In this document: positions 30,387-46,343 of the stretch, piece after piece
Layout of the letters: every line of letters starts with the position of its first letter
Position numbering within the stretch: position 1 is the first letter of the stretch
Assembly: GCA_965195345.1 (NCBI GenBank)
Contig: OZ239628.1
Location: forward strand, 736,001-800,000
DNA: 64,000 nucleotides
Direction of reading: 5' to 3'
From: an uncultured Thiomicrospira sp.
GTDB taxonomy: Bacteria; Pseudomonadota; Gammaproteobacteria; CAKMZV01
Notes under the pieces: generated by a model
Database searches by the model: none
Told to the model about the DNA's origin: nothing
What the model saw: only the letters and a program-made list of their open reading frames with translations
Made by a program: the position numbers and the translations under genes

Positions 30387-30625
30387 AATTTAGATAGCTA
30401 AAAGGCAACTAAAGTTGCTTGATTAATCCACCTTTATGTATTCATCGGGAAGGCAGGCATACAGCTTTTCTGCTTACCGCTTATTGCTTTAAATGTTATA
30501 AACTGCTTGCATTTTTTTTCATGCTTTAATTTATAATAAATCAAGTGTCACAGTGCAAAATATGAGCTTTTATCACGCGCATAAACTGTGGTGGTAATTT
30601 AATACATACAATAGTTGGGGCTATA
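30387..30625 (+). repeat. Conserved inter-adhesin spacer, copy a (hairpins, TATAAT at 30532, leader)
   Basis: Aligns by eye with the other spacers: GCAACTaaAGTTGC, CAGCTTTTCTGCTT, CATGCTTTAATTTATAATAAATCAAG. Confidence 0.9.
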
Positions 30626-33600
30626 ATGTTATTTGATATGCATAATATAAAACGGTGGTTGTTTTTGTCTTTGTTTGTTTTTCTATCTGCCTGCGGTGGT
30701 GGCGGTAGCGGTGATGGTGGCGACACAACACCTCCATCTACTAATACAGCACCAAGTTTAAGTCTCTCTGCCAACGCCGTAACGCTTGATGAAGATTTTG
30801 GCACCTTTATCATCAACACCACTGCCACCGATGCAGAAGATGGCGTGCTTCCCGTTGCAGTGACTGGACAAGATGCCAGTTTATTCGCCGTAACCACTTC
30901 TACCGATCAGATAATACTTACCTCCGTTGCTAATGCCAACGGCATAGCCACACTTACAGTAAGCATTGTTGATAGTGGAAATCTCTCCGCTTCCACCGAA
31001 GTGGTGGTGGTTGTCAACGCCGTCAATGATACGCCCACACTTACCTTTTCAACCACTCAACTTAGTCTAAATCCAAATTTCATGCCTCAGACAATAGCAA
31101 CAGCAACAGACGTTGATGATGCTTCCTTGCTCCTAACCTTTGCACTATCTGCAACCGATGTAGTACAAATAACGACAGTTGCTAATCGGTTTATATTAAA
31201 TCCTATCACTAATGCTTTTGGCGAGACAACCATCACTCTAACAGCAACTGATAACAGCGGTAATCAGTCATCTCAAATTTTCACAGTGCGCGTTAACGGA
31301 TTCCCTACATTAGCCTTATCAGCGCAGCGTATCACTTTAGATGAAGATTTTGGCACCTTTATCATCAACACCACTGCCACCGATGCAGAAGATGGCGTGC
31401 TTCCCGTTGCAGTGACTGGACAAGATGCCAGTTTATTCGCCGTAACCACTTCTACCGATCAGATAATACTTACCTCCGTTGCTAATGCCAACGGCATAGC
31501 CACACTTACAGTAAGCATTGTTGATAGTGGAAATCTCTCCGCTTCCACCGAAGTGGTGGTGGTTGTCAACGCCGTCAATGATACGCCCACACTTACCTTT
31601 TCAACCACTCAACTTAGTCTAAATGCAAATTTCATGCCTCAGACAATAGCAACAGCAACAGACGTTGATGATGCTTCCTTGCTCCTAACCTTTGCACTAT
31701 CTGCAACCGATGTAGTACAAATAACGACAGTTGCTAATCGGTTTATATTAAATCCTATCACTAATGCTTTTGGCGAGACAACCATCACTCTAACAGCAAC
31801 TGATAACAGCGGTAATCAGTCATCTCAAATTTTCACAGTGCGCGTTAACGGATTCCCTACATTAGCCTTATCAGCGCAGCGTATCACTTTAGATGAAGAC
31901 TTTGGCACCTTTATCATCAACACCACTGCCACCGATGTAGAAGATGGCGTGCTTCCCGTTGCAGTGACTGGACAAGATGCCAGTTTATTCGCCGTAACCA
32001 CTTCTACCAATCAGATTATGCTTACCTCCGTTGCTAATGCCAACGGCACAGCTACACTTACAGTAAGCATTGTTGATAGTGGAAATCTCTCCGCTTCCAC
32101 CGAAGTGGTGGTGATTGTCAACGCCGTCAATGATACGCCCACACTTACCTTTTCAACCACTCAACTTAGTCTAAATGCAAATTTCATGCCTCAGACAATA
32201 GCAACAGCAACAGACGTTGATGATGCTTCCTTGCTCCTAACCTTTGCACTATCTGCAACCGATGTAGTACAAATAACGACGGTTGCTAATCGGTTTATAT
32301 TAAATCCTATCACTAATGCTTTTGGCGACACAACTATCACCCTTGCAGTATCTGATGATGATGGTGCACGCTCTTCTTCTCAAATTTTCACAGTGCGCGT
32401 TAATGCGCCCATTGCATCGACAACGCCTACGTTAGCTTTATCAACGCAGAACATCACTTTAGATGAAGACTTTGGTACTTTTATTATCAACACCACTGCA
32501 ACCGATGCAGAAGATGGGACATTGTCAGTAACCGTATCTGGACAGGCTGGCTTACTAACCACTAATGCTACTACTGATCAAATTACGCTCACTTCCGTTG
32601 CCGATGCTAATGGAACAGTTACGCTCAATGTGCGTGCTGTTGACAGTGGTGATCTTGCAGCCTCCACCGAAGTGGTGGTAATTATCAATGCCGTCAATGA
32701 TAGTCCTACATTGACGCTATCAACAACTAACCTCAGCCTCAGTGAAGATTTTGGCACATTCATCATCAACACCACTGCAAGTGATGCAGAAGACGGAGCG
32801 TTATTAGTGACCGTATCTGGACAGGCTGGCTTACTAACCACTAATGCTACTACTGATCAAATTACGCTCACTTCCATTGCCAATGTCAATGGAACAACCA
32901 CACTCACTGTAAGTGCCACCGATAGTGACGCTATTACAGTCTCCACGGAAGTGATTGTTGTTGTCAATGCCGTCAATGATAGTCCTACATTGACGCTATC
33001 AACAACTAACCTTAGCCTCAGTGAAGATTTTGGCACTTTCATCATCAACACCACTGCAAGTGATGCAGAAGATGGTGTATTGTCTTTTACAGTATCTGGT
33101 CAAGATGCAAGTCTATTAACAGTTAGCACTTCTATCAATCAGATAATACTTACTTCTGTTGCTAATGCCAACGGAACAGTCACACTCACTGTAAGTGCTA
33201 CCGATAGTGATGCTCGTACAGTTACCACCGAAGTGGCTATCACCATCAACGCCATCAACGATACTCCGACATTGACTCTTGCTACAACAAATATTACCAT
33301 CGTTGAAAATGCCACTGCTCGTCAAACCATTTCCATTACTGATGTGGCGGATGTTGAGGGAAGCACACTTACTTTTTCAGTCATTGCCTCCACTTCTGTG
33401 TTTAGTAGTAATCCTACATCTGTAGTCTCCTTTTCAGACACAAGAATGATAACCTTCAGTAGACAAAGTACGACTGCTCAACTCTATTACACTCTACGAC
33501 CTGATAGCACAGGCACTGGCTTCATTCAAATTGCTCTAACAGATGGAATAGACACACAGGTTACAACTGTTACCGTGACTGTGACAGAAGTTAAAAATCC

Positions 33601-36600
33601 GCCCCAAATCACTCAAGACTTTAGAACACATCGCTTCTTTGATGCTCGTGCAACACGTGTAGGCGCTGTTGGAGGTGTCTTATTTGCAGCACGGGGTGTA
33701 TTCACTGGGTCGCTTGTATCAAGCTCAACAGATGGTACAGGGGATTTTAGCAATCAATTAAACTTTGCTCGCTCCTTAGGAGGGAGTTTGGCAGAACTGT
33801 ACACTGAGGAAACATACAATGCTTTATTGGGTTCTGTTTTGGTTGCTAATGGCGCTGCAACAGTAGGCTTTGATGATGATCGTTTTTGGCTTGGGCTCAC
33901 TGAAATACCCAATACTTTTGGCGCTTCTGTGCCAGATCAATCAGCATCAGATGATCGTTATTTTTGGTTATCTGGTCAACGGGTGTCACAAGGATTAGGC
34001 GCTGCTCGTGTAGACGTCCCAGGAGTATACATAGGTTGGGGGGCATCCGCCCCAGGTTCAGGTAGTCAGCCATGTGCGGATCTGATTCTTGGTGAAGAAG
34101 TGCCTGTAGGGTTCAGACCTTGGGCAAATGAAAGATGCGATGGATCGTCATTTGCTTTTTTCGATGCTCTAAAAGCGTTGATGCAGTTCCCAAATGGCTT
34201 ACCTACTACCTCCTCAATGGTTTTTCAAGCAAGGTCAGTAATCACACGTATTCGTTTAAGTGGTTATGATCTTGATGGTTCAGATAATGCACTATCTTGG
34301 CAAGTCACCGATGCATCTGGCGGTAGTATCACCACTTCCACGGTTTATAGCAGTACTGGCGCACAAACCTTAGAGATTGCTTACACCCCTGTGAGCAACT
34401 TTTCAGGCACTGCCACCCTTGTTGTAAGCTTAGATGATGGCGATAGTGCTACACAAAATAGTACTGCTCGTGTATTGGTGGTTAATAGCACACCGACTTT
34501 AACACTCTCAACCAATGCTGTCAGCTTAGATGAAGACTTTACCAGCTTCGTCATTAACACCACTGCAAGCAATGCAGCAGGGATAATTGACTTTAGTGTT
34601 AGCACAGGAAATGGCATTGTTCTTGTAACCACCTCTGCTAATGCAATTACACTGCAATCACTTCCGAATATAAATGGTACTGTAACCTTAACAGTCGTTG
34701 CGAGTAGTGGTCTTTTGACAGATACACAGACGATTAGCGTTGTGGTTAATCCAGTCAACGACACCCCCACGCTGTCTTTATCTGTGACGCAAAGGGTGCT
34801 TGCTCAAAACTTTGGCACTTTCGTCATCAACACCACTGCAACCGATGTGGAATCAGGCACATTGGGCTTTAGTGTCAGTACAGGTAATGGTATTGTCAAT
34901 GTAACCACCTCTGTCAATACGATTACTCTGCAATCACTCGCCAATGTCACAGGCGATGTGACGTTAACGGTTAGCGTAAGCGATGGACTATTGACGACGA
35001 CACAGTCCATTTTTATAACCGTTAGCAGGGCGGTGACGCTTGAAATATCCACAAATACTATTGTTTTAGATGAAGATTTTAATACCTTCATTATTAACAC
35101 CACTGCAACGGTTGCAGATGGGTCTACATTACCTATTTCAGTATTGCAGAGCACGCCTAATCTACTTGCATTTAGCACCATAACTGGGCGCATTACCCTT
35201 TCATCTATTGCGAATGCTAATGGAGTAACAACCCTTACCGTCAGTGCAACCAATCAAGGTGGATTAACGAACACGACAGAAGTGGCCATTACCATTAATT
35301 CCATTAATGATACTCCCACGCTCAGTTTATCAAATACAAACTTAACCTTGGCACCTAATAGCACTGGTTTGATAACTGCCTTTGGTGCGGATGTGGAAAC
35401 AAGCAGTGCCTCATTGGTCTATTCGGTGCAACAAAATCCATCTTTGTTACAAGTGAGTACACAAGGCAATGTCATCGTGCTGAGATCGAGTGCTACTGCA
35501 GGCTCGACCACTTTAGTGATAACCGTTACTGATGGCGGTAACTTAAGTGCTTCAGCAACCGCTCGAGTTACTGTTCTCTCTAATGTTTTGAATTTCGCGT
35601 TAAATGTTAAACGCATTGATTTTTCTTGGAATACATCCCTTACAGCAAATCATTACCGCATGCTTAGCAATGTCGATTTGAATGCTGGTGGTGGTTTTGT
35701 TGATGCCAGTAGCGCAAGTTTGGTGTTTGTACCGAATAGTACGAACATTATCAATACTACAGTCTCTGCGATAGTGGATGTAGCACGCTATCTTTCTACG
35801 GCTAATGGACCACAGTATCTGCTAGAAGCTTGTAGTAGTGTGGATAATTCAGCCTGTGCTAATCATGCACTACAAACTTTGAGCAATGCCCAGTTAGAAG
35901 GGTTGATTGGTTACTTCAAAGCATCTAACACAGGGGGTAGTGATCAATTTGGCACAGCTCTAGCAATAAGTGGTGATGGCAACACATTAGTTGTCGGTGC
36001 ACCATTTGAGGACAGCACCGCCACTGGCATCAACGGCGATGAAGTAAATAATAATTCAACTAACACTGGTGCGGTCTATGTTTTTGTGCGTAGTAGTACG
36101 GGCAGCTGGCGTCAACAAGCCTACGTCAAAGCCTCTAATACAGAAGCCAATGACCGGTTTGGTACAGCTGTATCGATAAGCGATAATGGTAATACGCTAA
36201 TTGTTGGTGCATTTGGGGAGGACAGCACCGCCACGGGCATCAACGGCGATCAATTAGATAATTCTGCAAGTGACTCTGGTGCAGCCTATGTTTTTGTACG
36301 CAACAGTGCCGGCACATGGAGTCAACAAGCCTATCTCAAAGCATCTAATACAGGAGCTGGAGATGAGTTTGGCCGAGGTGTTTCAATTAGTGGTGATGGT
36401 AACACACTGCTCATTAGCTCAATTGGAGAAGACAGCAATGCCACGGGTATCAACGGTGATCAAACAAACAATTCTACAAGTAACTCTGGTGCAGCTTATG
36501 TTTTTGTGCGCAGTAGTACAGATTCATCATGGAGCCAGCAAGCCTACATCAAAGCTTCCAATACAGACGCAGGTGATAGTTTTAGCTCAGCTGTATCGGT

Positions 36601-37360
36601 GAGTGATGATGGTAATACTTTAGTTATTGGGGCATCTTTTGAAGACAGCACCGCCACGGGCATTAACGGCGATCAAACAACTAATAGTGCAAGTGCATCT
36701 GGTGCAGCCTATGTTTTTGTACGCAGTAGTACAGATTCATCATGGAGTCAACAAGCCTACCTAAAAGCATCAAATACAGGTGTTAATGATCAATTTGGTA
36801 TAGCTGTATCAGTGAGTGATGATGGTAATACGCTTGTAGTCGGTGCATTATTTGAGGACAGCACTGCTACTGGCATTAATGGTAATCAAACAAGTAGTGG
36901 TGCAAATGATTCTGGTGCGGCCTATCTTTTTGTGCGCAGCAGCACGGGCACGTGGAGTCAACAAGCCTACATCAAAGCCTCTAATACACAGGGTGGTGAT
37001 ACATTTGGTAATTATGTGGCAATAAGCGGTGATGGTAATACGTTTGTAGTCAGTGCACCGAATGAGGACAGCAATGCCACGGGTATAAACGGTGATCAAG
37101 GCAATGTGAGCGGTTTGTCTAACTTCGGTGCAGCCTATCTCTTTGTGCGCAGCAGCACGGGTACATGGAGTCAACAAGCCTATGTCAAAGGCATAAATCT
37201 TGACGGATTCTTCGGTAGTTTATTAAGTAGTGTGTCGATGAGTGATGATGGTAAAACGCTTGCTACCGGTGCACCTAATGACGGACATTCTGCACGTGGT
37301 ATCAATGGTGGTCCAATAGACAATAATGCAGGCAGCTCTGGTGCGGTGTATTTATATTAG
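30626..37360 (+). CDS. Giant surface lipoprotein/adhesin 2 (2244 aa), with lectin-like domain
   Basis: Same architecture; three 552-bp units (register 30788/31340/31892) and 279-bp units (32462/32741/33020); 7 blades. Confidence 0.9.
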   Translation: MLFDMHNIKRWLFLSLFVFLSACGGGGSGDGGDTTPPSTNTAPSLSLSANAVTLDEDFGTFIINTTATDAEDGVLPVAVTGQDASLFAVTTSTDQIILTSVANANGIATLTVSIVDSGNLSASTEVVVVVNAVNDTPTLTFSTTQLSLNPNFMPQTIATATDVDDASLLLTFALSATDVVQITTVANRFILNPITNAFGETTITLTATDNSGNQSSQIFTVRVNGFPTLALSAQRITLDEDFGTFIINTTATDAEDGVLPVAVTGQDASLFAVTTSTDQIILTSVANANGIATLTVSIVDSGNLSASTEVVVVVNAVNDTPTLTFSTTQLSLNANFMPQTIATATDVDDASLLLTFALSATDVVQITTVANRFILNPITNAFGETTITLTATDNSGNQSSQIFTVRVNGFPTLALSAQRITLDEDFGTFIINTTATDVEDGVLPVAVTGQDASLFAVTTSTNQIMLTSVANANGTATLTVSIVDSGNLSASTEVVVIVNAVNDTPTLTFSTTQLSLNANFMPQTIATATDVDDASLLLTFALSATDVVQITTVANRFILNPITNAFGDTTITLAVSDDDGARSSSQIFTVRVNAPIASTTPTLALSTQNITLDEDFGTFIINTTATDAEDGTLSVTVSGQAGLLTTNATTDQITLTSVADANGTVTLNVRAVDSGDLAASTEVVVIINAVNDSPTLTLSTTNLSLSEDFGTFIINTTASDAEDGALLVTVSGQAGLLTTNATTDQITLTSIANVNGTTTLTVSATDSDAITVSTEVIVVVNAVNDSPTLTLSTTNLSLSEDFGTFIINTTASDAEDGVLSFTVSGQDASLLTVSTSINQIILTSVANANGTVTLTVSATDSDARTVTTEVAITINAINDTPTLTLATTNITIVENATARQTISITDVADVEGSTLTFSVIASTSVFSSNPTSVVSFSDTRMITFSRQSTTAQLYYTLRPDSTGTGFIQIALTDGIDTQVTTVTVTVTEVKNPPQITQDFRTHRFFDARATRVGAVGGVLFAARGVFTGSLVSSSTDGTGDFSNQLNFARSLGGSLAELYTEETYNALLGSVLVANGAATVGFDDDRFWLGLTEIPNTFGASVPDQSASDDRYFWLSGQRVSQGLGAARVDVPGVYIGWGASAPGSGSQPCADLILGEEVPVGFRPWANERCDGSSFAFFDALKALMQFPNGLPTTSSMVFQARSVITRIRLSGYDLDGSDNALSWQVTDASGGSITTSTVYSSTGAQTLEIAYTPVSNFSGTATLVVSLDDGDSATQNSTARVLVVNSTPTLTLSTNAVSLDEDFTSFVINTTASNAAGIIDFSVSTGNGIVLVTTSANAITLQSLPNINGTVTLTVVASSGLLTDTQTISVVVNPVNDTPTLSLSVTQRVLAQNFGTFVINTTATDVESGTLGFSVSTGNGIVNVTTSVNTITLQSLANVTGDVTLTVSVSDGLLTTTQSIFITVSRAVTLEISTNTIVLDEDFNTFIINTTATVADGSTLPISVLQSTPNLLAFSTITGRITLSSIANANGVTTLTVSATNQGGLTNTTEVAITINSINDTPTLSLSNTNLTLAPNSTGLITAFGADVETSSASLVYSVQQNPSLLQVSTQGNVIVLRSSATAGSTTLVITVTDGGNLSASATARVTVLSNVLNFALNVKRIDFSWNTSLTANHYRMLSNVDLNAGGGFVDASSASLVFVPNSTNIINTTVSAIVDVARYLSTANGPQYLLEACSSVDNSACANHALQTLSNAQLEGLIGYFKASNTGGSDQFGTALAISGDGNTLVVGAPFEDSTATGINGDEVNNNSTNTGAVYVFVRSSTGSWRQQAYVKASNTEANDRFGTAVSISDNGNTLIVGAFGEDSTATGINGDQLDNSASDSGAAYVFVRNSAGTWSQQAYLKASNTGAGDEFGRGVSISGDGNTLLISSIGEDSNATGINGDQTNNSTSNSGAAYVFVRSSTDSSWSQQAYIKASNTDAGDSFSSAVSVSDDGNTLVIGASFEDSTATGINGDQTTNSASASGAAYVFVRSSTDSSWSQQAYLKASNTGVNDQFGIAVSVSDDGNTLVVGALFEDSTATGINGNQTSSGANDSGAAYLFVRSSTGTWSQQAYIKASNTQGGDTFGNYVAISGDGNTFVVSAPNEDSNATGINGDQGNVSGLSNFGAAYLFVRSSTGTWSQQAYVKGINLDGFFGSLLSSVSMSDDGKTLATGAPNDGHSARGINGGPIDNNAGSSGAVYLY

Positions 37361-37607
37361 AATTTAAATAGCTAAAGGGCAACTAAATTTGCTTGATTAA
37401 TCCTGCCATTATGTATTCATCAGGCAGACAGGAATGCAGCTTTTCTGCTTAACGTTTATTGCTTTAAATGTTATAAACTGCTTGCATGTTTTCTCATGCT
37501 TTAATTTATAGTAAATCAAGTGTCACAGTTCAAAATATGAGCTTCTATCTCATACATAAACTGTAGTGAAATTTTAATTGCATAATTGAGTACATAAGGT
37601 GAATGAT
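37361..37607 (+). repeat. Conserved inter-adhesin spacer, copy b
   Basis: Same blocks; the -10-like hexamer reads TATAGT at 37507. Confidence 0.9.
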
Positions 37608-37906
37608 ATGCGGTATATAAAGCGCTGGGCATTTCTGTTGTTGTTTGTTTTTCTGTCTGCCTGCGGTGGCGGTGGTGGTACAACACCTCCATCTACTAAT
37701 ACAGCGCCAAGTTTAAGTCTCTCTGCCAACGCCGTAACGCTTGATGAAGATTTTGGCACCTTTATCGTCAACACCACTGCCACCGATGCAGAAGATGGAA
37801 TGTTGCCTTTTACAGTATCTAATCAAGATGCCAGTCTATTCGCCATCACGCTTCTGAAGTTGAGAAGGGTCATGAGGAAGAAGTAGTTATCGCAGCTATT
37901 GAAGAG

Positions 37907-38161
37907 ATGACTGATAAGACTAATGATGAGATTGTAGCTACATGGAAAGCTAATGGTCTATCAGATGGTATCGTTGATTATATTGTTAAGCATTCAACAC
38001 CATCAGTAATGATTGATCTAGTATTCATCACACATCTATTCACATGTATTAGATGTAGTCATAGTTTCAGTAAAGGCTTTCTTCAAGGCTGGATTTCAGA
38101 AACTAATTGTACTAAATGTTATAACAACTATGTTATTAATGAAAGTTTAAAAGGAAAATAA
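37907..38161 (+). CDS. Hypothetical, probably fragmentary or chimeric ORF in the insert
   Basis: Frame is open back to the insert boundary (ASEVEKGHEEEVVIAAIEEM...), so its 5' end is missing. Confidence 0.35.
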   Translation: MTDKTNDEIVATWKANGLSDGIVDYIVKHSTPSVMIDLVFITHLFTCIRCSHSFSKGFLQGWISETNCTKCYNNYVINESLKGK

Positions 38162-38162
38162 A

Positions 38163-38540
38163 ATGAACACATTATATATTGACGTCCGTATTGACGAAGA
38201 CTTCAACCTAGACCCTCGGATGGTATTTGATTCAGTTCGTATCAAGCACACAGAGATTGACAAGTATCTTCCTCTATTGCGTGGCAAGAAAGTTATTGTC
38301 ATCTGTCAGGCAGGTCTCAAGCTAAGTCAAGGTACTGCTGGTATCTTGAACGCTCATGGTATTGACGCCACTCATCTAGTAGGTGGTTTCATTGGTATTG
38401 AAGATAAAGATGGTATGGAAGAAGCTCCAACTTATGAGTATGTAGCAGCAGCAGAAGGTACTGATGTTGATACTGATAAGTTAGTAGCATATGTAGATGA
38501 AGATCAGGTTGATCTTGTAACAGAAAAGTTTGGATGGTAG
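38163..38540 (+). CDS. Rhodanese-like domain protein (resembles the rhodanese domain of chromate-resistance ChrB/ChrE-type proteins) with an acidic tail
   Basis: IDVR.DEDF..DPR, VIVICQAGLKLSQG, L.GGF; SD AAGGA. Confidence 0.7.
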   Translation: MNTLYIDVRIDEDFNLDPRMVFDSVRIKHTEIDKYLPLLRGKKVIVICQAGLKLSQGTAGILNAHGIDATHLVGGFIGIEDKDGMEEAPTYEYVAAAEGTDVDTDKLVAYVDEDQVDLVTEKFGW

Positions 38541-38541
38541 A

Positions 38542-39108
38542 ATGATTGAACTAGTATTATTCCTATTGTTTATTATCGGTACTCCTGGTCCTGCTAATAT
38601 GATTTCAATGTTAGCTGCTACTGAGTCTGGTCTAAAGCAGACACTCAAGATGGTAGCAGGTATCGCTGTAGGTCTTGCGTTTCTTAGTGTAGTAGTAGGA
38701 TTAGGCTTCTCTACTATCCAGCAGTATCCTAATGTAGTCTTAGCCATGAAGCTAATCAGTGCTGGCTATATGATTTGGTTGTCTATCCAGGCTTGGAGAG
38801 GTAATGGTCATGCTCTACATGTAGAGAAGTATACATTCGTCAAAGGTCTATTCATTCAGCCTCTAAATCCTAAGGCTTGGGTATTCACTATCTTGGCTTG
38901 GAGCACATATTCAGCTGGCGTTAGTGCTGATGTTATGTGGCAGTTTGTAGGTGTAACAGCAGCATTGATGGGTGTGACATTTACTTCACAATCAACATAT
39001 GCTGTAGCTGGTTCATTGATGAACAGAGTTATGTCTAAGAGTCGTACACTTACTCGTGTATTGGTTGTAATGAATGTAGCTGTAGTTCTTTGGGCACTGA
39101 CACTCTAG
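38542..39108 (+). CDS. LysE/RhtB family translocator
   Basis: TPGPAN, YMIWLS, QPLNPKAW, about 6 TM segments; ATG 1 bp after the upstream stop. Confidence 0.92.
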   Translation: MIELVLFLLFIIGTPGPANMISMLAATESGLKQTLKMVAGIAVGLAFLSVVVGLGFSTIQQYPNVVLAMKLISAGYMIWLSIQAWRGNGHALHVEKYTFVKGLFIQPLNPKAWVFTILAWSTYSAGVSADVMWQFVGVTAALMGVTFTSQSTYAVAGSLMNRVMSKSRTLTRVLVVMNVAVVLWALTL

Positions 39109-39258
39109 AGAGGATTGTATGATTACCTCTACCAATCAGATTATGCTTACCTCCGTTGCTAATGCCAACGGCATAGCTACACTTACAGTAAGCATTGTTG
39201 ATAGTGGAAATCTCTCCGCTTCCACCGAAGTGGTGGTGATTGTCAATGCCATTAATGA

Positions 39259-39384
39259 TGCATGTTTCCTCATGTTTTAATTTATAATAAATCAAGTGTC
39301 ACAGTGCAAAATATGAGCTTCTATCTCATACATAAACTGTAGTGAAATTTTAATTGCATAATTGAGTACATAAGGTGAATTGAT
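39259..39384 (+). repeat. Partial inter-adhesin spacer, copy c (3' half only)
   Basis: Starts at TGCATGTTTCCTCATG; TATAAT at 39283; the upstream hairpin half is missing. Confidence 0.88.
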
Positions 39385-42300
39385 ATGGGATATATAAAGC
39401 GCTGGGCATTTCTGTTGCTGTTTGTTTTTCTGTCTGCCTGCGGTGGCGGTGGTGGTACAACACCTCCATCTACTAATACAGCACCAAGTTTAAGTCTCTC
39501 TGTCAATGCCGTAACGCTTGATGAAGATTTTGGTACCTTTATCATCAACACCACAGCAACCGATGCAGAAGATGGCGATCTTCCCGTTGCAGTGACTGGA
39601 CAAGATGCCAGTCTATTCGCCGTAACCACTTCTACCAATCAGATAATACTCACCTCCGTAGCTAATGCCAATGGCATAGCTACGCTTACAGTAAGCATTG
39701 TTGATAGTGGAAATCTCTCCGCTTCCACCGAAGTGGTGGTGATTGTCAATGCCGTCAATGATACGCCCACACTTACCTTTTCAACCACTCAATTTAATCT
39801 AAATGCAAACTTTACCCCGCAAACAATAGCAACAGCAACAGACGTTGATGATGCTTCCTTGCTCCTAACCTTTGCACTCTCTGCAACCGATGTAGTACAA
39901 ATAACGACGGTTGCTAATCGGTTTATATTAAATCCTATCACTAATGCTTTTGGCGAGACAACCATCACTTTAACAGCAACTGATAACAGCGGTAATCAGT
40001 CATCTCAAATTTTCACAGTGCGCGTTAACGGATTCCCTACATTAGCCTTATCAACGCAGCGTATCACTTTAGATGAAGACTTTGGCACTTTCGTCATCAA
40101 CATCACTGCAAGTGATGCAGAAGATGGCGTGCTTCCCGTTGCAGTGACTGGACAAGATGCCAGCCTATTCGCCGTAACCACTTCTACCAATCAGATAATA
40201 CTCACCTCCGTAGCTAATGCCAACGGAACAGCCACCCTTACTGTAAGCGCTAACGATAGTGAGAACCTCTCAGTCTCCACCGAAGTGGTGGTGATTGTCA
40301 ATGCCATTAATGATACGCCCACACTTACCTTTTCAACCACTCAATTTAGTCTAAATGCAAATTTCATGCCTCAGACAATAGCAACAGCAACAGACGTTGA
40401 TGATGCTTCCTTGCTCCTAACCTTTGCACTATCTGCAACCGATGTAGTACAAATAACGACGGTTGCTAATCGGTTTATATTAAATCCTATCACTAATGCT
40501 TTTGGCGAGACAACCATCACTCTAACAGCAACTGATAACAGCGGTAATCAGTCATCTCAAATTTTCACAGTGCGCGTTAACGGATTCCCTACATTAGCCT
40601 TATCAACGCAGCGTATCACTTTAGATGAAGACTTTGGCACCTTTATCATCAACACCACTGCCACCGATGTAGAAGATGGAGTGCTTCCCGTTGCAGTGAT
40701 TGGACAAGATGCCAGTCTATTCGCCGTAACCACTTCTACCGATCAGATTATGCTTACCTCCGTTGCCAATGCCAACGGAACAGTCACGCTTACAGTAAGC
40801 ATTGTTGATAGTGGAAATCTCTCCGCTTCCACCGAAGTGGTGGTGATTGTCAACGCCGTCAATGATACGCCCACACTTACCTTTTCAACCACTCAACTTA
40901 GTCTAAATGCAAATTTCATGCCTCAGACAATAGCAACAGCAACAGACGTTGATGATGCTTCCTTGCTCCTAACCTTTGCACTATCAGCAACCGATGTAGT
41001 ACAAATAACGACTGTTGCTAATCAGTTTATATTAAATCCTATCACTAATGCTTTTGGCGACACAACTATCACCCTAGCAGTATCTGATGCTGGTGTACGC
41101 TCTTCTTCTCAAGTTTTCACAGTGCGCGTTAACGCACCCACCGCATCGACAACACCTACGTTAGCTTTATCAACGCAGAATATCACTTTAGATGAAGACT
41201 TTGGTACTTTTATTATCAACACCACTGCCACCGATGCAGAAGATGGGACACTGTCAGTAACTGTATCTGGACAGGCTGGCTTATTAACCACTAATGCTAC
41301 TACTGATCAAATTACGCTCACTTCCGTTGCCAATGCTAATGGAACAGTTACGCTCAACGTACTTGCTGTTGACAGTGGTGGTCTTGCAGCCTCCACCGAA
41401 GTGGTGGTGATTATCAATGCCGTCAATGATAGTCCTACATTGACGCTATCAACAACTAACCTCAGCCTCAGTGAAGATTTTGGCACTTTCATCATCAACA
41501 CCACTGCAAGTGATGCAGAAGACGGAGCGTTATTAGTGATCGTATCTGGACAGGCTGGTTTACTAACCACTAATGCTACTACTGATCAAATTACGCTCAC
41601 TTCCGTTGCTAATGCCAACGGAACAACCACACTCACTGTAAGTGCCACCGATAGTGACGCTATTACAGTCTCCACCGAAGTGGTTGTTGTTGTCAATGCC
41701 GTCAATGATAGTCCTACATTGACGCTATCAACAACTAACCTTAGCCTCAGTGAAGACTTCGGCACTTTCATCATCAACACGACAGCAAGTGATGCAGAAG
41801 ATGGTGTGTTGTCTTTTACGGTATCTGGTCAAGATGCAAGTCTATTAACAGTTAGCACCTCTACCAACCAGATAATACTCACTTCCGTTGCTAATGCCAA
41901 CGGAACAACCACACTCACTGTAAGTGCTACCAATAGTGACACTATTACAGTTACCACCGAAGTGGCTATCACCATCAACGCCATCAACGATACTCCGACA
42001 TTGACTCTTGCTACAACAAATATTACCATCGTTGAAAATGCCACTGCTCGTCAAACCATTTCCATCACCAATGTAGCGGATGTTGAGGGAAGCACACTTA
42101 CTTTTTCAGTCATTGCCTCCACTTCTGTGTTTAGTAGTAATCCTACATCTGTAGTCTCCTTCTCAGACACAAGAATGATAACCTTCAGTAGACAAAGTAC
42201 TACAGCTCAACTCTATTACACTCTACGACCTGACAGCACAGGTACTGGCTTCATTCAAATCGCTCTCACAGATGGCATAGACACACAGTTTACAACTGTT

Positions 42301-45300
42301 ACCGTGACTGTGACAGAAGTTAAAAATCCGCCCCAAATCACCCAAGACTTTAGAACACATCGCTTCTTTGATGCGCGTGCAACACGTGTAGGCGCTGTTG
42401 GAGGTGTCTTATTTGCAGCACGAGGTGTATTTACAGAATCGACTGCAACAACCTCTACAGATGGTACGGGGAATTTTGGCAATCAATTAAACTTTGCCCG
42501 TTCCTTAGGGGGGAGTTTAGCCGAACTGTACACTGAGGAAACATATAACGCTTTATTGGGTTCTGTTTTGGTTGCCAATGGCGCTGCAACAGAAGGTCTT
42601 AATGATGATCGTTTTTGGCTTGGATTGACCGATATGCCTGACTCTTTTGGAGTCACCGTAGCAGATCAATCTTCGACAGATAACCGTTATTTTTGGTTAT
42701 CTGGTCAGCGAGTATCGCAAGGATCAGGTGGTACTCGTATAGACGTTCCAGGAGTATACATAGGCTGGGGGGCATCTGCTCCGGGTAATCAGGGTTGTGC
42801 TAATCTGATTATTGCTGACGACGTATCTGTAGCGCTCAGACCTTGGTCAAGTAATACATGCTTTGGAAATGTTTTTGACGCTATAAAAGCGTTGATGCAG
42901 TTTCCAAATGGCTTACCCACTACTTCTTCAATGCTTGTTCAAGCGAGGTTCCCCATCACACGCATTCGCTTAAGTGGTTATGATCTTGATGGTTCAGATA
43001 ATACATTGTCTTGGCAAGTTACCAATGCATCTGGCGGTAGCATCACTACTTCCACAGTTTATAGTAGTACTGGTGCACAAACCTTAGAGATTGCTTACAC
43101 CCCTGTGAGCAGTTTTGCAGGCACTGCAACCCTTGTTGTAAGCTTAGATGATGGCGATAGTGCTACACAAAATAGTACTGCCCGTGTATTAGTGGTTAAT
43201 AGTACACCGATCCTAATACTCTCAACCAATACTATTAGCTTAGATGAAGACTTTATCAGCTTCATCATTAACACCACTGCAACCGATGCAGCAGGGATAA
43301 CCGGCTTTAGTGTTAGCACAGGAAATGGCGTTGTTGATGTAACCACCTCTGCTAATGCAATTACGCTGCAATCACTTGCGAATATAAGTGGTACTGTAAC
43401 CTTAACAGTCGTTGCGGATAGTGGTCTTTTGGCAAATACACAGACGATTAGCGTTGTGGTTAATCCAGTCAACGACACTCCCACGCTGTCTTTATCTGTG
43501 ACGCAAAGGGCGCTTGCTCAAGATTTTGGCACTTTTGTTATCAACACCACTGCAACCGATGTGGAATCAGGCCCATTGGGCTTTAGTGTCAGTACAGGTA
43601 ATGGTATTGTCAATGTGACAACCTCTGTCAATACGATTACTCTGCAATCACTCGCTAATGTCATAGGCAATGTGACGTTAACGGTTAGCGTAAGCGATGG
43701 ACTATTGACGACGACACAGTCGATTTTTATAACTGTTAGTAGGGTGTTTACGCTTGAAGTATCGACAAACACTATCGTTTTAGATGAAGATTTTAATACC
43801 TTTATCATTAACACCACTGCAACGGCTGCAGATGGGACTATATTACCTATTTCAGTATTGCAGAGCACGCCTAATTTACTTACATTCAATGCCACAACTG
43901 GGCGTATTACCCTCTCATCTATTGCGAATGTGAATGGTGTAACGACCCTTACCGTCAGTGCAACCAATCAAGGTGGATTAACGAACACGACAGAAGTAGC
44001 CATTACCATTAATTCCATTAATGATACTCCAACGCTCAGTTTATCAAATACAAACTTAATCTTGGCATCTAATAGCACTGGTTTGATAACTGCCTTTGTC
44101 ACGGATGTGGAAACAAGCAGTGCCTCATTGACCTTTTCGGTACAACAAAATCCATCTTTGTTACAGGTGAGTACACAAGGCAATGTCATCGTGCTGAGAT
44201 CGAATGCTACTGCAGGCTCAACCACTTTAGTGATAACTGTTACTGATGGCGATGGTTTAAGCACTTCAGCAACCGCTCGAGTTACTGTTCTATCAAATGT
44301 TTTGAATATTGCTTTAAATGTTAAGCGCATTGATTTTTCTTGGAGCACACTTCCTACAGCAAATCATTACCGCATGCTTAGCAATGTCGATTTGAATGCT
44401 GGTGGAGGTTTTGTTGATGCCAGTAGCGCAAGCTTAGTTTTTATACCGAATAGTACGAATATTATCAATACTACAGTCTCTGCGATAGTGGATGTAGCAC
44501 GCTATCTTTCTACGGCTAATGGACCACAGTACCTGCTAGAAGCTTGTAGTAGTGTGGACAACTCCGTTTGTTCTAATCTTGCGCAACAAACTTTGAGCAA
44601 TGCCCAGTTAGAAGGGCTGATTGGTTATTTCAAAGCATCTAATACAGATATTGATGATAGGTTTGGTCGTAATGTAGCAATAAGCGGTGATGGCAACACA
44701 TTAGTTGTCGGTGCACCACTTGAGGACAGCACTGCCACTGGCATCAACGGCGATCAATTAGACAATTCTGCAAGTAACTCTGGTGCAGCCTATGTTTTCG
44801 TGCGCAGTAGTACGGGCAGCTGGCGTCAACAAGCATACATTAAAGCCTCTAATACTGGAAGTTTTGACCAGTTTGGTGCAGCTGTATCGATAAGCGATAA
44901 TGGTAATACGCTAATTGTTGGTGCGTTTGGGGAGGACAGCACCGCCACGGGTATCAACGGCGATGAAGCAATTAATAGTGCAAGTGCCTCTGGTGCAGCT
45001 TATGTTTTTGTGCGCAGTAGTACGGCGGGCACATGGAGTCAACAAGCTTATCTCAAAGCATCTAATACAGGAGCTGGAGATAATTTTGGCCGAGGTGTTT
45101 CAATTAGTGGTGATGGTACTACGCTAATTGTTGGTGCACCTTTCGAAGACAGCACCGCCACGGGCATCAACGGCGATGAAGCAAGTAATGGGGCATCTGC
45201 ATCTGGTGCAGCTTATGTTTTTGTGCGCAGTAGTACAGATAGTACGTGGAGCCAACAGGTCTACCTTAAAGCATCAAACACAGGGGGAAATGATCAATTT

Positions 45301-46083
45301 GGTACAGCTGCATCAATAAGCAGTAATGGTAATACGATCATTGTTGGTGCACGTGGTGAAGGCAGCAGTGCTATGGGTATCAACGGTGATGAATCCAGCG
45401 ATACTGCTTTTCTTGCCGGTGCAGTCTATGTTTTTGTACGCAGTAGTACAGATTCATCATGGAGTCAACAAGCCTACCTTAAAGCATCAAATACAGATGG
45501 AGATGATCAATTTGGTGTAGCTGTATCAGTGAGTGATGATGGTAATACGCTTGTAGTAGGTGCATTATTTGAGGACAGCACTGCTACTGGCATTAATGGC
45601 AATCAAACAAGCAGTGGTGCAGATGGCTCTGGTGCAGCCTATCTTTTTGTGCGCAGCAGTACCGGCACGTGGAGTCAACAAGCCTACATCAAAGCCTCTA
45701 ATACAGGAGCTGATGATTCATTTGGTAATTATGTGTCAATAAGCGGTGATGGTAATACGTTTGTAGTCAGTGCACCGAATGAGGACAGTATTGCCACGGG
45801 TATAAACGGTGATCAAGGCAATGTGAGCATTCTTTCCAACTTCGGTGCAGCCTATCTCTTTGTGCGCAGCAGCACAGGCACATGGAGTCAACGAAGCTAT
45901 ATCAAAGCCTCAAATACTGATGCAAACACATTCGGCAGTATTTCATTTGGTAGTGCGTCGATAAGTGATGATGGTAAAACGCTTGCTGTCGGTGGATTTG
46001 GGGAAGGAAGTAGTGCCCGTGGTATCAATGGCGATCAAACAGACCTTAGTGCCTCTGGCTCTGGTGCAGTGTATTTATATTAG
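39385..46083 (+). CDS. Giant surface lipoprotein/adhesin 4 (2232 aa), with lectin-like domain
   Basis: Lipobox, three 552-bp units (39520/40072/40624), CTLD-like domain, 7 blades, GAVYLY. Confidence 0.9.
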   Translation: MGYIKRWAFLLLFVFLSACGGGGGTTPPSTNTAPSLSLSVNAVTLDEDFGTFIINTTATDAEDGDLPVAVTGQDASLFAVTTSTNQIILTSVANANGIATLTVSIVDSGNLSASTEVVVIVNAVNDTPTLTFSTTQFNLNANFTPQTIATATDVDDASLLLTFALSATDVVQITTVANRFILNPITNAFGETTITLTATDNSGNQSSQIFTVRVNGFPTLALSTQRITLDEDFGTFVINITASDAEDGVLPVAVTGQDASLFAVTTSTNQIILTSVANANGTATLTVSANDSENLSVSTEVVVIVNAINDTPTLTFSTTQFSLNANFMPQTIATATDVDDASLLLTFALSATDVVQITTVANRFILNPITNAFGETTITLTATDNSGNQSSQIFTVRVNGFPTLALSTQRITLDEDFGTFIINTTATDVEDGVLPVAVIGQDASLFAVTTSTDQIMLTSVANANGTVTLTVSIVDSGNLSASTEVVVIVNAVNDTPTLTFSTTQLSLNANFMPQTIATATDVDDASLLLTFALSATDVVQITTVANQFILNPITNAFGDTTITLAVSDAGVRSSSQVFTVRVNAPTASTTPTLALSTQNITLDEDFGTFIINTTATDAEDGTLSVTVSGQAGLLTTNATTDQITLTSVANANGTVTLNVLAVDSGGLAASTEVVVIINAVNDSPTLTLSTTNLSLSEDFGTFIINTTASDAEDGALLVIVSGQAGLLTTNATTDQITLTSVANANGTTTLTVSATDSDAITVSTEVVVVVNAVNDSPTLTLSTTNLSLSEDFGTFIINTTASDAEDGVLSFTVSGQDASLLTVSTSTNQIILTSVANANGTTTLTVSATNSDTITVTTEVAITINAINDTPTLTLATTNITIVENATARQTISITNVADVEGSTLTFSVIASTSVFSSNPTSVVSFSDTRMITFSRQSTTAQLYYTLRPDSTGTGFIQIALTDGIDTQFTTVTVTVTEVKNPPQITQDFRTHRFFDARATRVGAVGGVLFAARGVFTESTATTSTDGTGNFGNQLNFARSLGGSLAELYTEETYNALLGSVLVANGAATEGLNDDRFWLGLTDMPDSFGVTVADQSSTDNRYFWLSGQRVSQGSGGTRIDVPGVYIGWGASAPGNQGCANLIIADDVSVALRPWSSNTCFGNVFDAIKALMQFPNGLPTTSSMLVQARFPITRIRLSGYDLDGSDNTLSWQVTNASGGSITTSTVYSSTGAQTLEIAYTPVSSFAGTATLVVSLDDGDSATQNSTARVLVVNSTPILILSTNTISLDEDFISFIINTTATDAAGITGFSVSTGNGVVDVTTSANAITLQSLANISGTVTLTVVADSGLLANTQTISVVVNPVNDTPTLSLSVTQRALAQDFGTFVINTTATDVESGPLGFSVSTGNGIVNVTTSVNTITLQSLANVIGNVTLTVSVSDGLLTTTQSIFITVSRVFTLEVSTNTIVLDEDFNTFIINTTATAADGTILPISVLQSTPNLLTFNATTGRITLSSIANVNGVTTLTVSATNQGGLTNTTEVAITINSINDTPTLSLSNTNLILASNSTGLITAFVTDVETSSASLTFSVQQNPSLLQVSTQGNVIVLRSNATAGSTTLVITVTDGDGLSTSATARVTVLSNVLNIALNVKRIDFSWSTLPTANHYRMLSNVDLNAGGGFVDASSASLVFIPNSTNIINTTVSAIVDVARYLSTANGPQYLLEACSSVDNSVCSNLAQQTLSNAQLEGLIGYFKASNTDIDDRFGRNVAISGDGNTLVVGAPLEDSTATGINGDQLDNSASNSGAAYVFVRSSTGSWRQQAYIKASNTGSFDQFGAAVSISDNGNTLIVGAFGEDSTATGINGDEAINSASASGAAYVFVRSSTAGTWSQQAYLKASNTGAGDNFGRGVSISGDGTTLIVGAPFEDSTATGINGDEASNGASASGAAYVFVRSSTDSTWSQQVYLKASNTGGNDQFGTAASISSNGNTIIVGARGEGSSAMGINGDESSDTAFLAGAVYVFVRSSTDSSWSQQAYLKASNTDGDDQFGVAVSVSDDGNTLVVGALFEDSTATGINGNQTSSGADGSGAAYLFVRSSTGTWSQQAYIKASNTGADDSFGNYVSISGDGNTFVVSAPNEDSIATGINGDQGNVSILSNFGAAYLFVRSSTGTWSQRSYIKASNTDANTFGSISFGSASISDDGKTLAVGGFGEGSSARGINGDQTDLSASGSGAVYLY

Positions 46084-46343
46084 AATTTAAATAGCTAAAG
46101 GGCAACTAAATTTGCTTGAATTTGCTTGATTGACCCTACCACTATGTATTCATCAGGCAGACAGGAAGGCAGCTTTTCTGCTTAACGTTTATTGCTTTAA
46201 ATGTTATAAACATGCTTGTATGTTTTCTCATGCTTTAATTTATAATAAATCAAGTTGTCACAGTGCATAATATGAGCTTCTATGTCATGCATAAACTGTA
46301 GTGAAATTTTAATTACATAATTAAGCACATAAGGTGAATTGAT
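46084..46343 (+). repeat. Conserved inter-adhesin spacer, copy d
   Basis: Same blocks, plus a 10-bp duplication AATTTGCTTG; TATAAT at 46241. Confidence 0.9.

Follow-up and report, generated by a model that had tools for sequence, protein, structure and literature searches.

A foreign DNA fragment carrying three genes has entered an adhesin pseudogene, the remnant of a giant lipoprotein gene for a surface protein, in an uncultured Thiomicrospira sp. (GenBank assembly GCA_965195345.1, contig OZ239628.1). The stretch analysed here, referred to as the window, is 64,000 nucleotides long and corresponds to positions 736001–800000 of a single-contig 1.92-Mb genome with a completeness of 99.7%; coordinates below are those of the window unless stated otherwise. 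The event is a real and clean acquisition of foreign genes that looks recent and shows no mobile-element machinery. We consider it probable that illegitimate recombination, with neither a transposase nor an integrase involved, inserted a random piece of foreign double-stranded DNA into the gene remnant.

Most horizontal transfer is attributed either to homologous recombination or to mobile elements, and natural cases of plain joining are hard to prove, as the empty site is mostly unknown. The present event is well documented because an array of paralogous genes supplies the empty-site sequence. Illegitimate capture of DNA is an already known kind of event; what is new is a natural instance at base-pair resolution, in a small-genome marine bacterium that lacks the classical end-joining genes and offers an example of transposase-free gene gain.

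Results and discussion

The insert and its empty site

The insertion and the two parts of the host gene that flank it are as follows:

37850..39124, + strand: foreign insert of 1274–1275 nt, both boundaries placed to within 1 nt, single copy, deviant codon usage
37609..37849, + strand: left part of the truncated paralog copy (signal peptide, lipobox Cys and the start of the first stalk domain), translation MRYIKRWAFLLLFVFLSACGGGGG..., 84–91% identity to the 5′ ends of paralogs
39125..39259, + strand: right part of the truncated copy, 135 nt, 93–98% identity to paralog repeats, homology beginning at 39125

A whole-genome pattern search found 12 paralog sites equivalent to the insertion point, ten of which carry the exact sequence TTCGCCGTAACCACTTCTACCAATCAG (a thirteenth hit of the pattern, at genome position 1528502, has no relation to the paralogs). 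In the disrupted copy the left flank reads ...TTCGCCATCAC(G) and the right flank resumes as (T)ACCTCTACCAATCAG, while blastn homology to the paralogs stops at 37844–37849 and restarts at 39125. When 37851–39124 is removed, a 27-nt stretch remains that keeps the consensus length, is identical at 23 of 27 positions and encodes FAITTSTNQ; the original prediction, made from the sequence alone, had described a clean insertion at these coordinates whose excision restores this peptide, and comparison with the 12 paralog sites bears it out. With the insert taken out, the flanks line up collinearly with the paralog consensus, give or take 1 nt. The boundary is uncertain by that one nucleotide: the consensus base at the position is C, and both G37850 and T39124 deviate from it, so that the insert comprises either 1274 nt with no host loss or 1275 nt with one host nucleotide lost.

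No terminal inverted or direct repeats were found, and none of the 23 inverted pairs detected in 37700–39300 links the two ends. As a target duplication, only one imperfect 6-mer pair comes into question, GCTTCT at 37850–37855 against ACCTCT at 39125–39130, with four of six bases shared (estimated p of about 0.04 for one comparison). A perfect target-site repeat is absent, and reading the imperfect 6-mer as a duplication requires an extra 1-nt deletion. Given the host consensus ACTTCT at this point, the similarity could represent microhomology, a decayed target duplication or chance.

Read support for both junctions

Short-read support was drawn from four runs (X1–X4) of one study, which cover two samples and are possibly the assembly's own source; the run contigs (unitigs) had been built from the reads by a different assembler than the genome's, and a junction was scored as bridged when 31 letters were present on either side. 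In X1, one 1389-nt unitig spans 37769–39157 with no mismatches and no gap, both junctions inside. Its depth is 20.9, while neighbouring copy-specific unitigs have depths of 16.4, 26.3 and 26. The left junction is bridged also in X2 (37769–38126) and X3 (37814–38148), whereas the right junction is bridged by at least 31 letters only in X1, X2 extending 18 nt past it; X4 bridges neither, and such gaps are not probative. None of the runs X1–X4 shows an insert-skipping joint, a back-joint (the two insert ends joined to each other) or a loose end at 37850 or 39124. Since the unitig is unbranched through both junctions, the sample holds no detectable empty-site allele or free donor form. A chimeric read or an assembler error is very unlikely as the cause of the insert, and the argument of the original prediction against a two-fragment chimera is upheld by this single exact unitig at flank depth, which also answers the spanning-read and coverage checks it had proposed. 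Run X5, which bears the same species label and comes from a different study, contained next to none of the sampled words.

In X4, a contig of depth 4.65 tracks the insert over 38088–38358 and then continues with 21 non-fitting letters. This point does not coincide with a junction, and the divergence after 38358 may reflect a rare variant or an error in sequencing or assembly.

The insert is foreign to its host

The insert is single-copy in the genome and is absent from 40 related genomes, two of them of the same genus. Base composition alone is little informative, with a G+C content of 38.6% in the insert and 39.8% in the genome. Synonymous codon choice differs far more: relative to the host, the insert uses CTA for 35% vs 10% of Leu, GTA for 58% vs 24% of Val, AAG for 65% vs 24% of Lys, CAG for 73% vs 24% of Gln, GGT for 72% vs 34% of Gly and ATA for 0% vs 27% of Ile. 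For the three insert open reading frames (ORFs) pooled, the per-codon deviation is 0.298, and the maximum among 432 equal-length pieces of host ORFs is 0.247; the LysE-family gene alone deviates more than 1243 of 1244 host pieces. A single codon bias (CTA, GTA and GGT favoured, no ATA) is common to all three ORFs and lies outside the host range, and codon usage of this kind is seen in none of the genome's remaining ORFs. The tetranucleotide distance of the insert falls in the top 2.2% of 3014 windows. No match of at least 20 nt, spacer-like or other, was found between the insert and the remaining genome, and the host's own LysE paralogs are only 31–32% identical to the insert LysE. Judged by these compositional measures, the insert DNA is foreign to its host, as had been predicted, and the proposed check for copies elsewhere likewise agrees with that prediction.

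Genes carried by the insert

The insert contains three ORFs and the start of a fourth gene:

37853..38161, + strand: ORF1, 102 codons, reading frame already open where the insert begins, CxxC...CxxC motif close to the C-terminus
38163..38540, + strand: ORF2, 125 aa, short rhodanese-like domain (residues ~4–81, loop CQAGLKLS) and an acidic 40-residue tail
38542..39108, + strand: ORF3, intact LysE/RhtB-family exporter, 188 aa, PF01810 E=1.5e-15
39110..39124, + strand: GAGG (39110–39113), a 5-nt spacer and ATG ATT, putatively the beginning of another donor gene, of which 6 nt remain

ORF1 has no family in Pfam, PHROGs or NCBIfam and no relatives by word search of 5.8 billion proteins. An AlphaFold2 model computed without an alignment has a mean predicted local distance difference test (pLDDT) score of 53 and is unusable. 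The nearest ESM Atlas clusters score 0.88–0.90, below the level that counts, and two of them belong to Uroviricota.

ORF2 scores 17.9 bits against the Pfam Rhodanese family (PF00581), under the gathering cut-off of 22.2, and E=9e-9 against NCBIfam rhodan_ChrE, likewise under cut-off. Its residues 4–81 are 50–56% identical to sequences at eight of nine marine metagenome loci and 32% identical at the ninth; in the seven loci with a complete frame, the domain forms the N-terminus of a rhodanese-ChrB-like protein of ~290–320 residues. We therefore describe ORF2 as rhodanese-like, on the strength of this 50–56% identity to the domains of longer proteins and of its ESM neighbours (0.88–0.89); by eye, CQAGLKLS resembles an active-site loop. 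At the two loci with listed ORFs (L076 and L080), a ChrA-type chromate-transporter-like gene adjoins the rhodanese relative, with housekeeping genes around. Compared with these relatives (L074–L080), ORF2 (38163–38540) has an acidic 40-residue tail in place of the ChrB part.

ORF3 matches PF01810 with 57.6 bits (cut-off 25.6) over residues 10–185 and phrog_16154 with E=3.4e-19; it aligns end to end with seven relatives, and the PGPxN and PK motifs are conserved. Its stop codon, TAG at 39106–39108, lies 16 nt before the end of the insert, and six of its seven Lys codons are AAG. These details, and the opening of the insert in the middle of an ORF, agree with the original prediction, which had missed the Shine-Dalgarno sequence (SD) and ATG at the insert end. 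The genes are tightly packed, with 1 nt between ORF1 and ORF2 and 1 nt between ORF2 and ORF3. They are co-oriented with the promoter of the remnant, from which the foreign genes may be transcribed.

Two further features were noted near the right junction. A perfect 8-bp palindrome, CTCTAGAG, occurs at 39103–39110, overlapping the LysE stop codon 14 nt before the junction, and has no suggested function. In addition, the severed start codon continues in frame into the host remnant, and a chimeric ORF of 53 codons (39119–39280) with a good SD results.

Mobile-element signatures and host recombination genes

Searches of the Pfam, PHROGs and NCBIfam profile libraries found no transposase, integrase or reverse-transcriptase domains in the three ORFs, in agreement with the original prediction of an insertion with no transposase; the repeat search was negative too, as predicted for inverted repeats, while for a target-site duplication, likewise predicted to be lacking, no perfect copy exists and the imperfect 6-mer is the one candidate. 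A classical DDE insertion sequence (IS) or transposon was rejected, given the missing transposase, the missing terminal inverted repeats, the single genome copy and the lack of copies in the 40 relatives. IS200/IS605 and IS91 elements, which are of the HUH type and make no target duplication, were rejected as well, with no genome match to the Y1 transposase (PF01797) and no subterminal end hairpins: DNA folds at both ends and on both strands gave z-scores of -0.60, +1.02, +0.77 and -0.08. The search for an IS91-type Y2 transposase (PF04986) had no genome matches, but its control also matched nowhere, and it is hence uninformative. No Rfam match to a structured RNA was found in the insert, and a group II intron was also discarded.

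An integron cassette was likewise rejected: the last stop codon lies just 16 nt from the insert end, imperfect palindromes as large as an attC are lacking, and neither IntI nor attI is adjacent. The insert does share several properties with such cassettes, being small, promoterless, tightly coding, of non-host codon usage and placed 3′ of a resident promoter, with no transposase or target duplication and a sequence that can be read as a circular permutation. It differs in having no attC-like structure (12 non-coding bases in all), a boundary unlike the integron core GTTRRRY (compared by eye), three genes rather than the usual one, no adjacent integrase, and a position inside coding sequence instead of at attI. 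An integrase-borne island or prophage was rejected given the lack of an integrase, of flanking direct repeats and of any tRNA in 30000–47000.

Four tyrosine recombinases (PF00589) are encoded in the genome, the nearest at 861 kb, with the insert at 774 kb; the unknown integrase invoked by the original prediction thus found no positive evidence, these four genes being far from the site. The best tyrosine-recombinase match, outside the window at genome positions 861393–861791, occupies an open frame just 192 codons long and may be a truncated integrase.

Profiles for Ku (PF02735) and for ATP-dependent ligase (PF01068) each gave no match in the host genome, and both controls matched. RecC (PF04257, E=8e-50) and the NAD-dependent ligase LigA (PF01653, E=2e-88) are encoded, as are ComEC and DprA. 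RecC and LigA would permit joining of the alternative end-joining (A-EJ) or microhomology-mediated end-joining (MMEJ) type, their presence being no proof of it. Capture by Ku/LigD non-homologous end joining (NHEJ) was rejected, the host having neither Ku nor any ATP-dependent ligase, and the break repair that had been predicted accordingly loses its classical Ku/LigD pathway.

Search for a donor

Searches of 50,697 phage records with the insert (blastn) and with ORF1 and ORF2 (tblastn, E<=1) gave no match, while LysE matched three records by tblastn at 28–31.5% identity: two very large "phage" records in which the gene is annotated eamB, and one Salmonella contig. Pattern scans of IMG/VR with all three ORFs yielded none that was confirmed. 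In the word search of 5.8 billion proteins, LysE returned itself and one protein at 41% identity, and ORF1 and ORF2 returned only themselves; with HMMER, the best full-length relative of LysE among 1.84 billion representatives was 39% identical. In a 400-genome sample of the host's class, the best match was partial and 38% identical, and metagenome contigs searched with LysE contained no donor.

The contigs that hold the best LysE relatives (39–41%) are long and cellular and come from SAR116/Puniceispirillum, Arenicellales, Acidiferrobacteraceae and marine bacteria of similar kind, and overall the best relatives of the insert proteins are cellular marine proteins at 39–56% identity. The rhodanese relatives have neither a LysE nor an ORF1 gene beside them, and the neighbours of the LysE relatives include neither rhodanese nor ORF1 genes.

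The original prediction had called the insert possibly of phage origin. Weak hints in that direction are the tight gene packing, the two ORFans, the two sub-threshold viral ESM neighbours of ORF1 and the PHROG family of LysE, which LysE matches no better than Pfam. Against a phage source, the nearest relatives of both recognisable genes are bacterial, and ORF1 and ORF2 have no phage match, so that the suggestion gains no support from the searches. Correlation of codon usage with the insert, for five selected phage genomes, was 0.80 for Syn9, 0.76 for P-SSM2, 0.75 for T4, 0.68 for HTVC008M and 0.62 for KVP40, against 0.63 for the host; the comparison does not discriminate because none of the five phages shares the CTA/GTA/AAG/CAG bias. 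We consider an unsampled marine phage and an unsampled marine bacterium about equally likely as the donor.

One protein in the representative library (P0004, 1795 residues) matched LysE residues 62–90 in 31 separate stretches (E=4.5e-33) and probably represents an artefact or a hydrophobic protein made of repeats.

How the fragment may have been joined

In the explanation that we favour, a double-stranded foreign fragment that begins within one gene and stops 6 nt past the start of another would have entered the host and landed in the 377-nt remnant of a lipoprotein gene. The joining would have been nearly conservative, with 0–1 nt lost and no clear target duplication. It may have proceeded by alternative end joining of the RecBCD/LigA type at a double-strand break, or by illegitimate integration of DNA that had been taken up; with neither Ku nor LigD in the host, a Ku-independent route is the most likely.

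One of the closest parallels is the capture of heterologous DNA at chromosomal breaks in Sinorhizobium meliloti, which Dupuy et al. (PMC6379672) describe as Ku-dependent. There, too, a non-homologous linear fragment is ligated into a break, with no transposase, inverted repeats or target duplication and with small or no losses at the ends. That capture needs Ku and LigD, whereas the present host has neither Ku nor an ATP-dependent ligase, and it was seen in a laboratory assay with an induced I-SceI break, whereas the present case is natural. Ku-independent A-EJ in Escherichia coli is resection-dependent and uses microhomology, according to PMC6054270, which cites Chayot et al. 2010. The two cases have in common a gammaproteobacterial host without Ku, genes of the RecBCD type (RecC) and for an NAD-dependent ligase, and non-homologous joins; they differ in that almost nothing has been resected here.

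Several points weigh against a random linear fragment. The insert ends 6 nt after an SD and ATG, for which we estimate a chance of about 1% with a random break, and this ATG is in frame with the 5′-open ORF1 if the insert is 1275 nt long; a circular or tandem donor would explain these ends better than a random linear fragment does. End joining of the A-EJ type in E. coli usually resects and deletes, and here at most 1 nt was lost. ComEC and DprA occur also in non-competent bacteria, as the search controls showed, and uptake of free DNA is thus only putative. Finally, all read support comes from one study, perhaps the source of the assembly.

Integration during natural transformation is the alternative that fares best, and we hold it to be unlikely. 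Here single-stranded DNA would have been incorporated by double illegitimate recombination (DIR) or homology-facilitated illegitimate recombination (HFIR), annealing at microhomologies at a replication fork. HFIR and DIR in Acinetobacter baylyi are forms of illegitimate integration during natural transformation, and like the present event they integrate foreign DNA without a mobile element. The host encodes ComEC and DprA, the repeated array provides many homologous anchors, and the insert opens with GCTTCT, five of whose six bases agree with the host consensus just to the right (ACTTCT), a possible microhomology at its left end that is weak, with an estimated p of about 0.03 after allowing for offsets. 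HFIR normally replaces recipient DNA between anchor and joint, and no recipient DNA was replaced here. In the short-patch form of double illegitimate recombination (SPDIR), patches are typically tens of bases long, far shorter than the 1.27 kb of the present insert. In A. baylyi, foreign or ectopic single strands anneal at microhomologies, and the SPDIR events are described as microindels (bioRxiv 10.1101/2023.11.22.568220).

The observation about the insert ends that sits awkwardly with the favoured explanation leads to a second alternative, in which the insert arrived as a 1275-bp circle, or as a unit of a tandem or rolling-circle form, with three complete genes and 12 non-coding bases. Joining 39124 to 37850 places the SD and ATG-ATT in frame with ORF1 and yields a complete 105-codon gene, which would account both for the open start of the frame and for the end 6 nt past a start codon; all three genes are then intact, with spacings of 1, 1 and 10 nt. 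The circle would have been opened by a single conservative crossover within codon 2–3 of ORF1 and inserted in host coding sequence, either as a promoterless mini-cassette of an undescribed kind or as a self-ligated fragment joined by a topoisomerase-like exchange, and a single reciprocal exchange predicts no gain, loss or duplication, as is seen. However, the frame is maintained for only one of three boundary choices (1275 nt), so that the frame match alone has p=1/3, and this choice requires one lost host nucleotide and is not strictly conservative. No circle junction was seen in the four runs, no second copy was found in any collection searched, and no recombinase lies nearby. The unit is too compact to hold an attC-like site or an origin, its boundaries are unlike GTTRRRY, and no known cassette type fits. 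On balance we judge a circular donor improbable. If it were true, a mini-cassette would have moved by an undescribed mechanism in a streamlined host without Ku, a Y1-type HUH transposase or a nearby integrase; otherwise the insertion reveals no new mechanism.

A non-autonomous mobile element, whose enzyme acted in trans or has since been lost, seems highly improbable to us. It would have produced a 6-bp duplication of ACTTCT that decayed to GCTTCT and ACCTCT, and each 6-mer is indeed one position off that host consensus. This account needs the additional 1-nt deletion in the left flank, and it has to contend with the missing terminal inverted repeats and end hairpins, the single copy and the lack of a Y1 transposase; moreover, the insert starts and ends inside genes, unlike any defined element. 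An artefact of assembly, library or processing, by which contaminant DNA was chimerically joined into a repeat-rich region, could appeal to the highly repetitive sequence, to a donor seen nowhere else and to supporting runs all from one study, yet it is barely conceivable in view of the exact 1389-nt unitig from a different assembler with both junctions at flank-level depth, the left junction bridged in three of four runs and two samples, the unbranched junctions, and flanks collinear to the base, which a random chimera would not be expected to show.

The landing site and its array

The random-fragment explanation draws further support from the history of the site. The interrupted gene is a 377-nt 5′ remnant of a giant lipoprotein gene, not a full-length copy, a point that the original prediction had missed: it consists of the first 241 nt of a paralog and 135 more nt 3′ of the insert. 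The remaining features of the gap are its intergenic sequences:

37361..37608, + strand: intergenic/promoter region 5′ of the truncated paralog copy, 86–93% identity to the regions preceding five other genes of the array and 73–76% to three more distant ones
39260..39384, + strand: partial intergenic region before the next full paralog, 125 nt, 96.7% identity to 37484–37604

A second non-homologous junction, 39259/39260, lies 135 nt downstream of the insert and connects position +377 of the gene with the counterpart of position 37484 in the intergenic region, with a microhomology of at most 1 nt (T) by eye. An X1 unitig (39230–39305) is exact across it, with 30 letters on the left side where the criterion is 31. 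It marks where a partial tandem duplication, or else an internal deletion of ~6.4 kb, once took place in the array. Because the remnant itself ends in a non-homologous junction, the array had already been hit by such a partial duplication or internal deletion, which shows illegitimate joining earlier in its history. The landing site is dispensable, and no function was lost. Redundant remnants with an active promoter can act as safe landing pads for new genes.

The giant lipoprotein genes form a tandem array from 24714 to the window end, with lengths of 1890, 2244, 2232, 997, 1549, 1179 and >1912 codons and ~240 bp of conserved intergenic sequence between adjacent genes. The gap between the array gene ending at 37360 and that starting at 39385, within which the remnant and the insert lie, measures 2025 bp, and the array member that follows it (39385–46083) carries FG-GAP, Big_9 and HYR domains.

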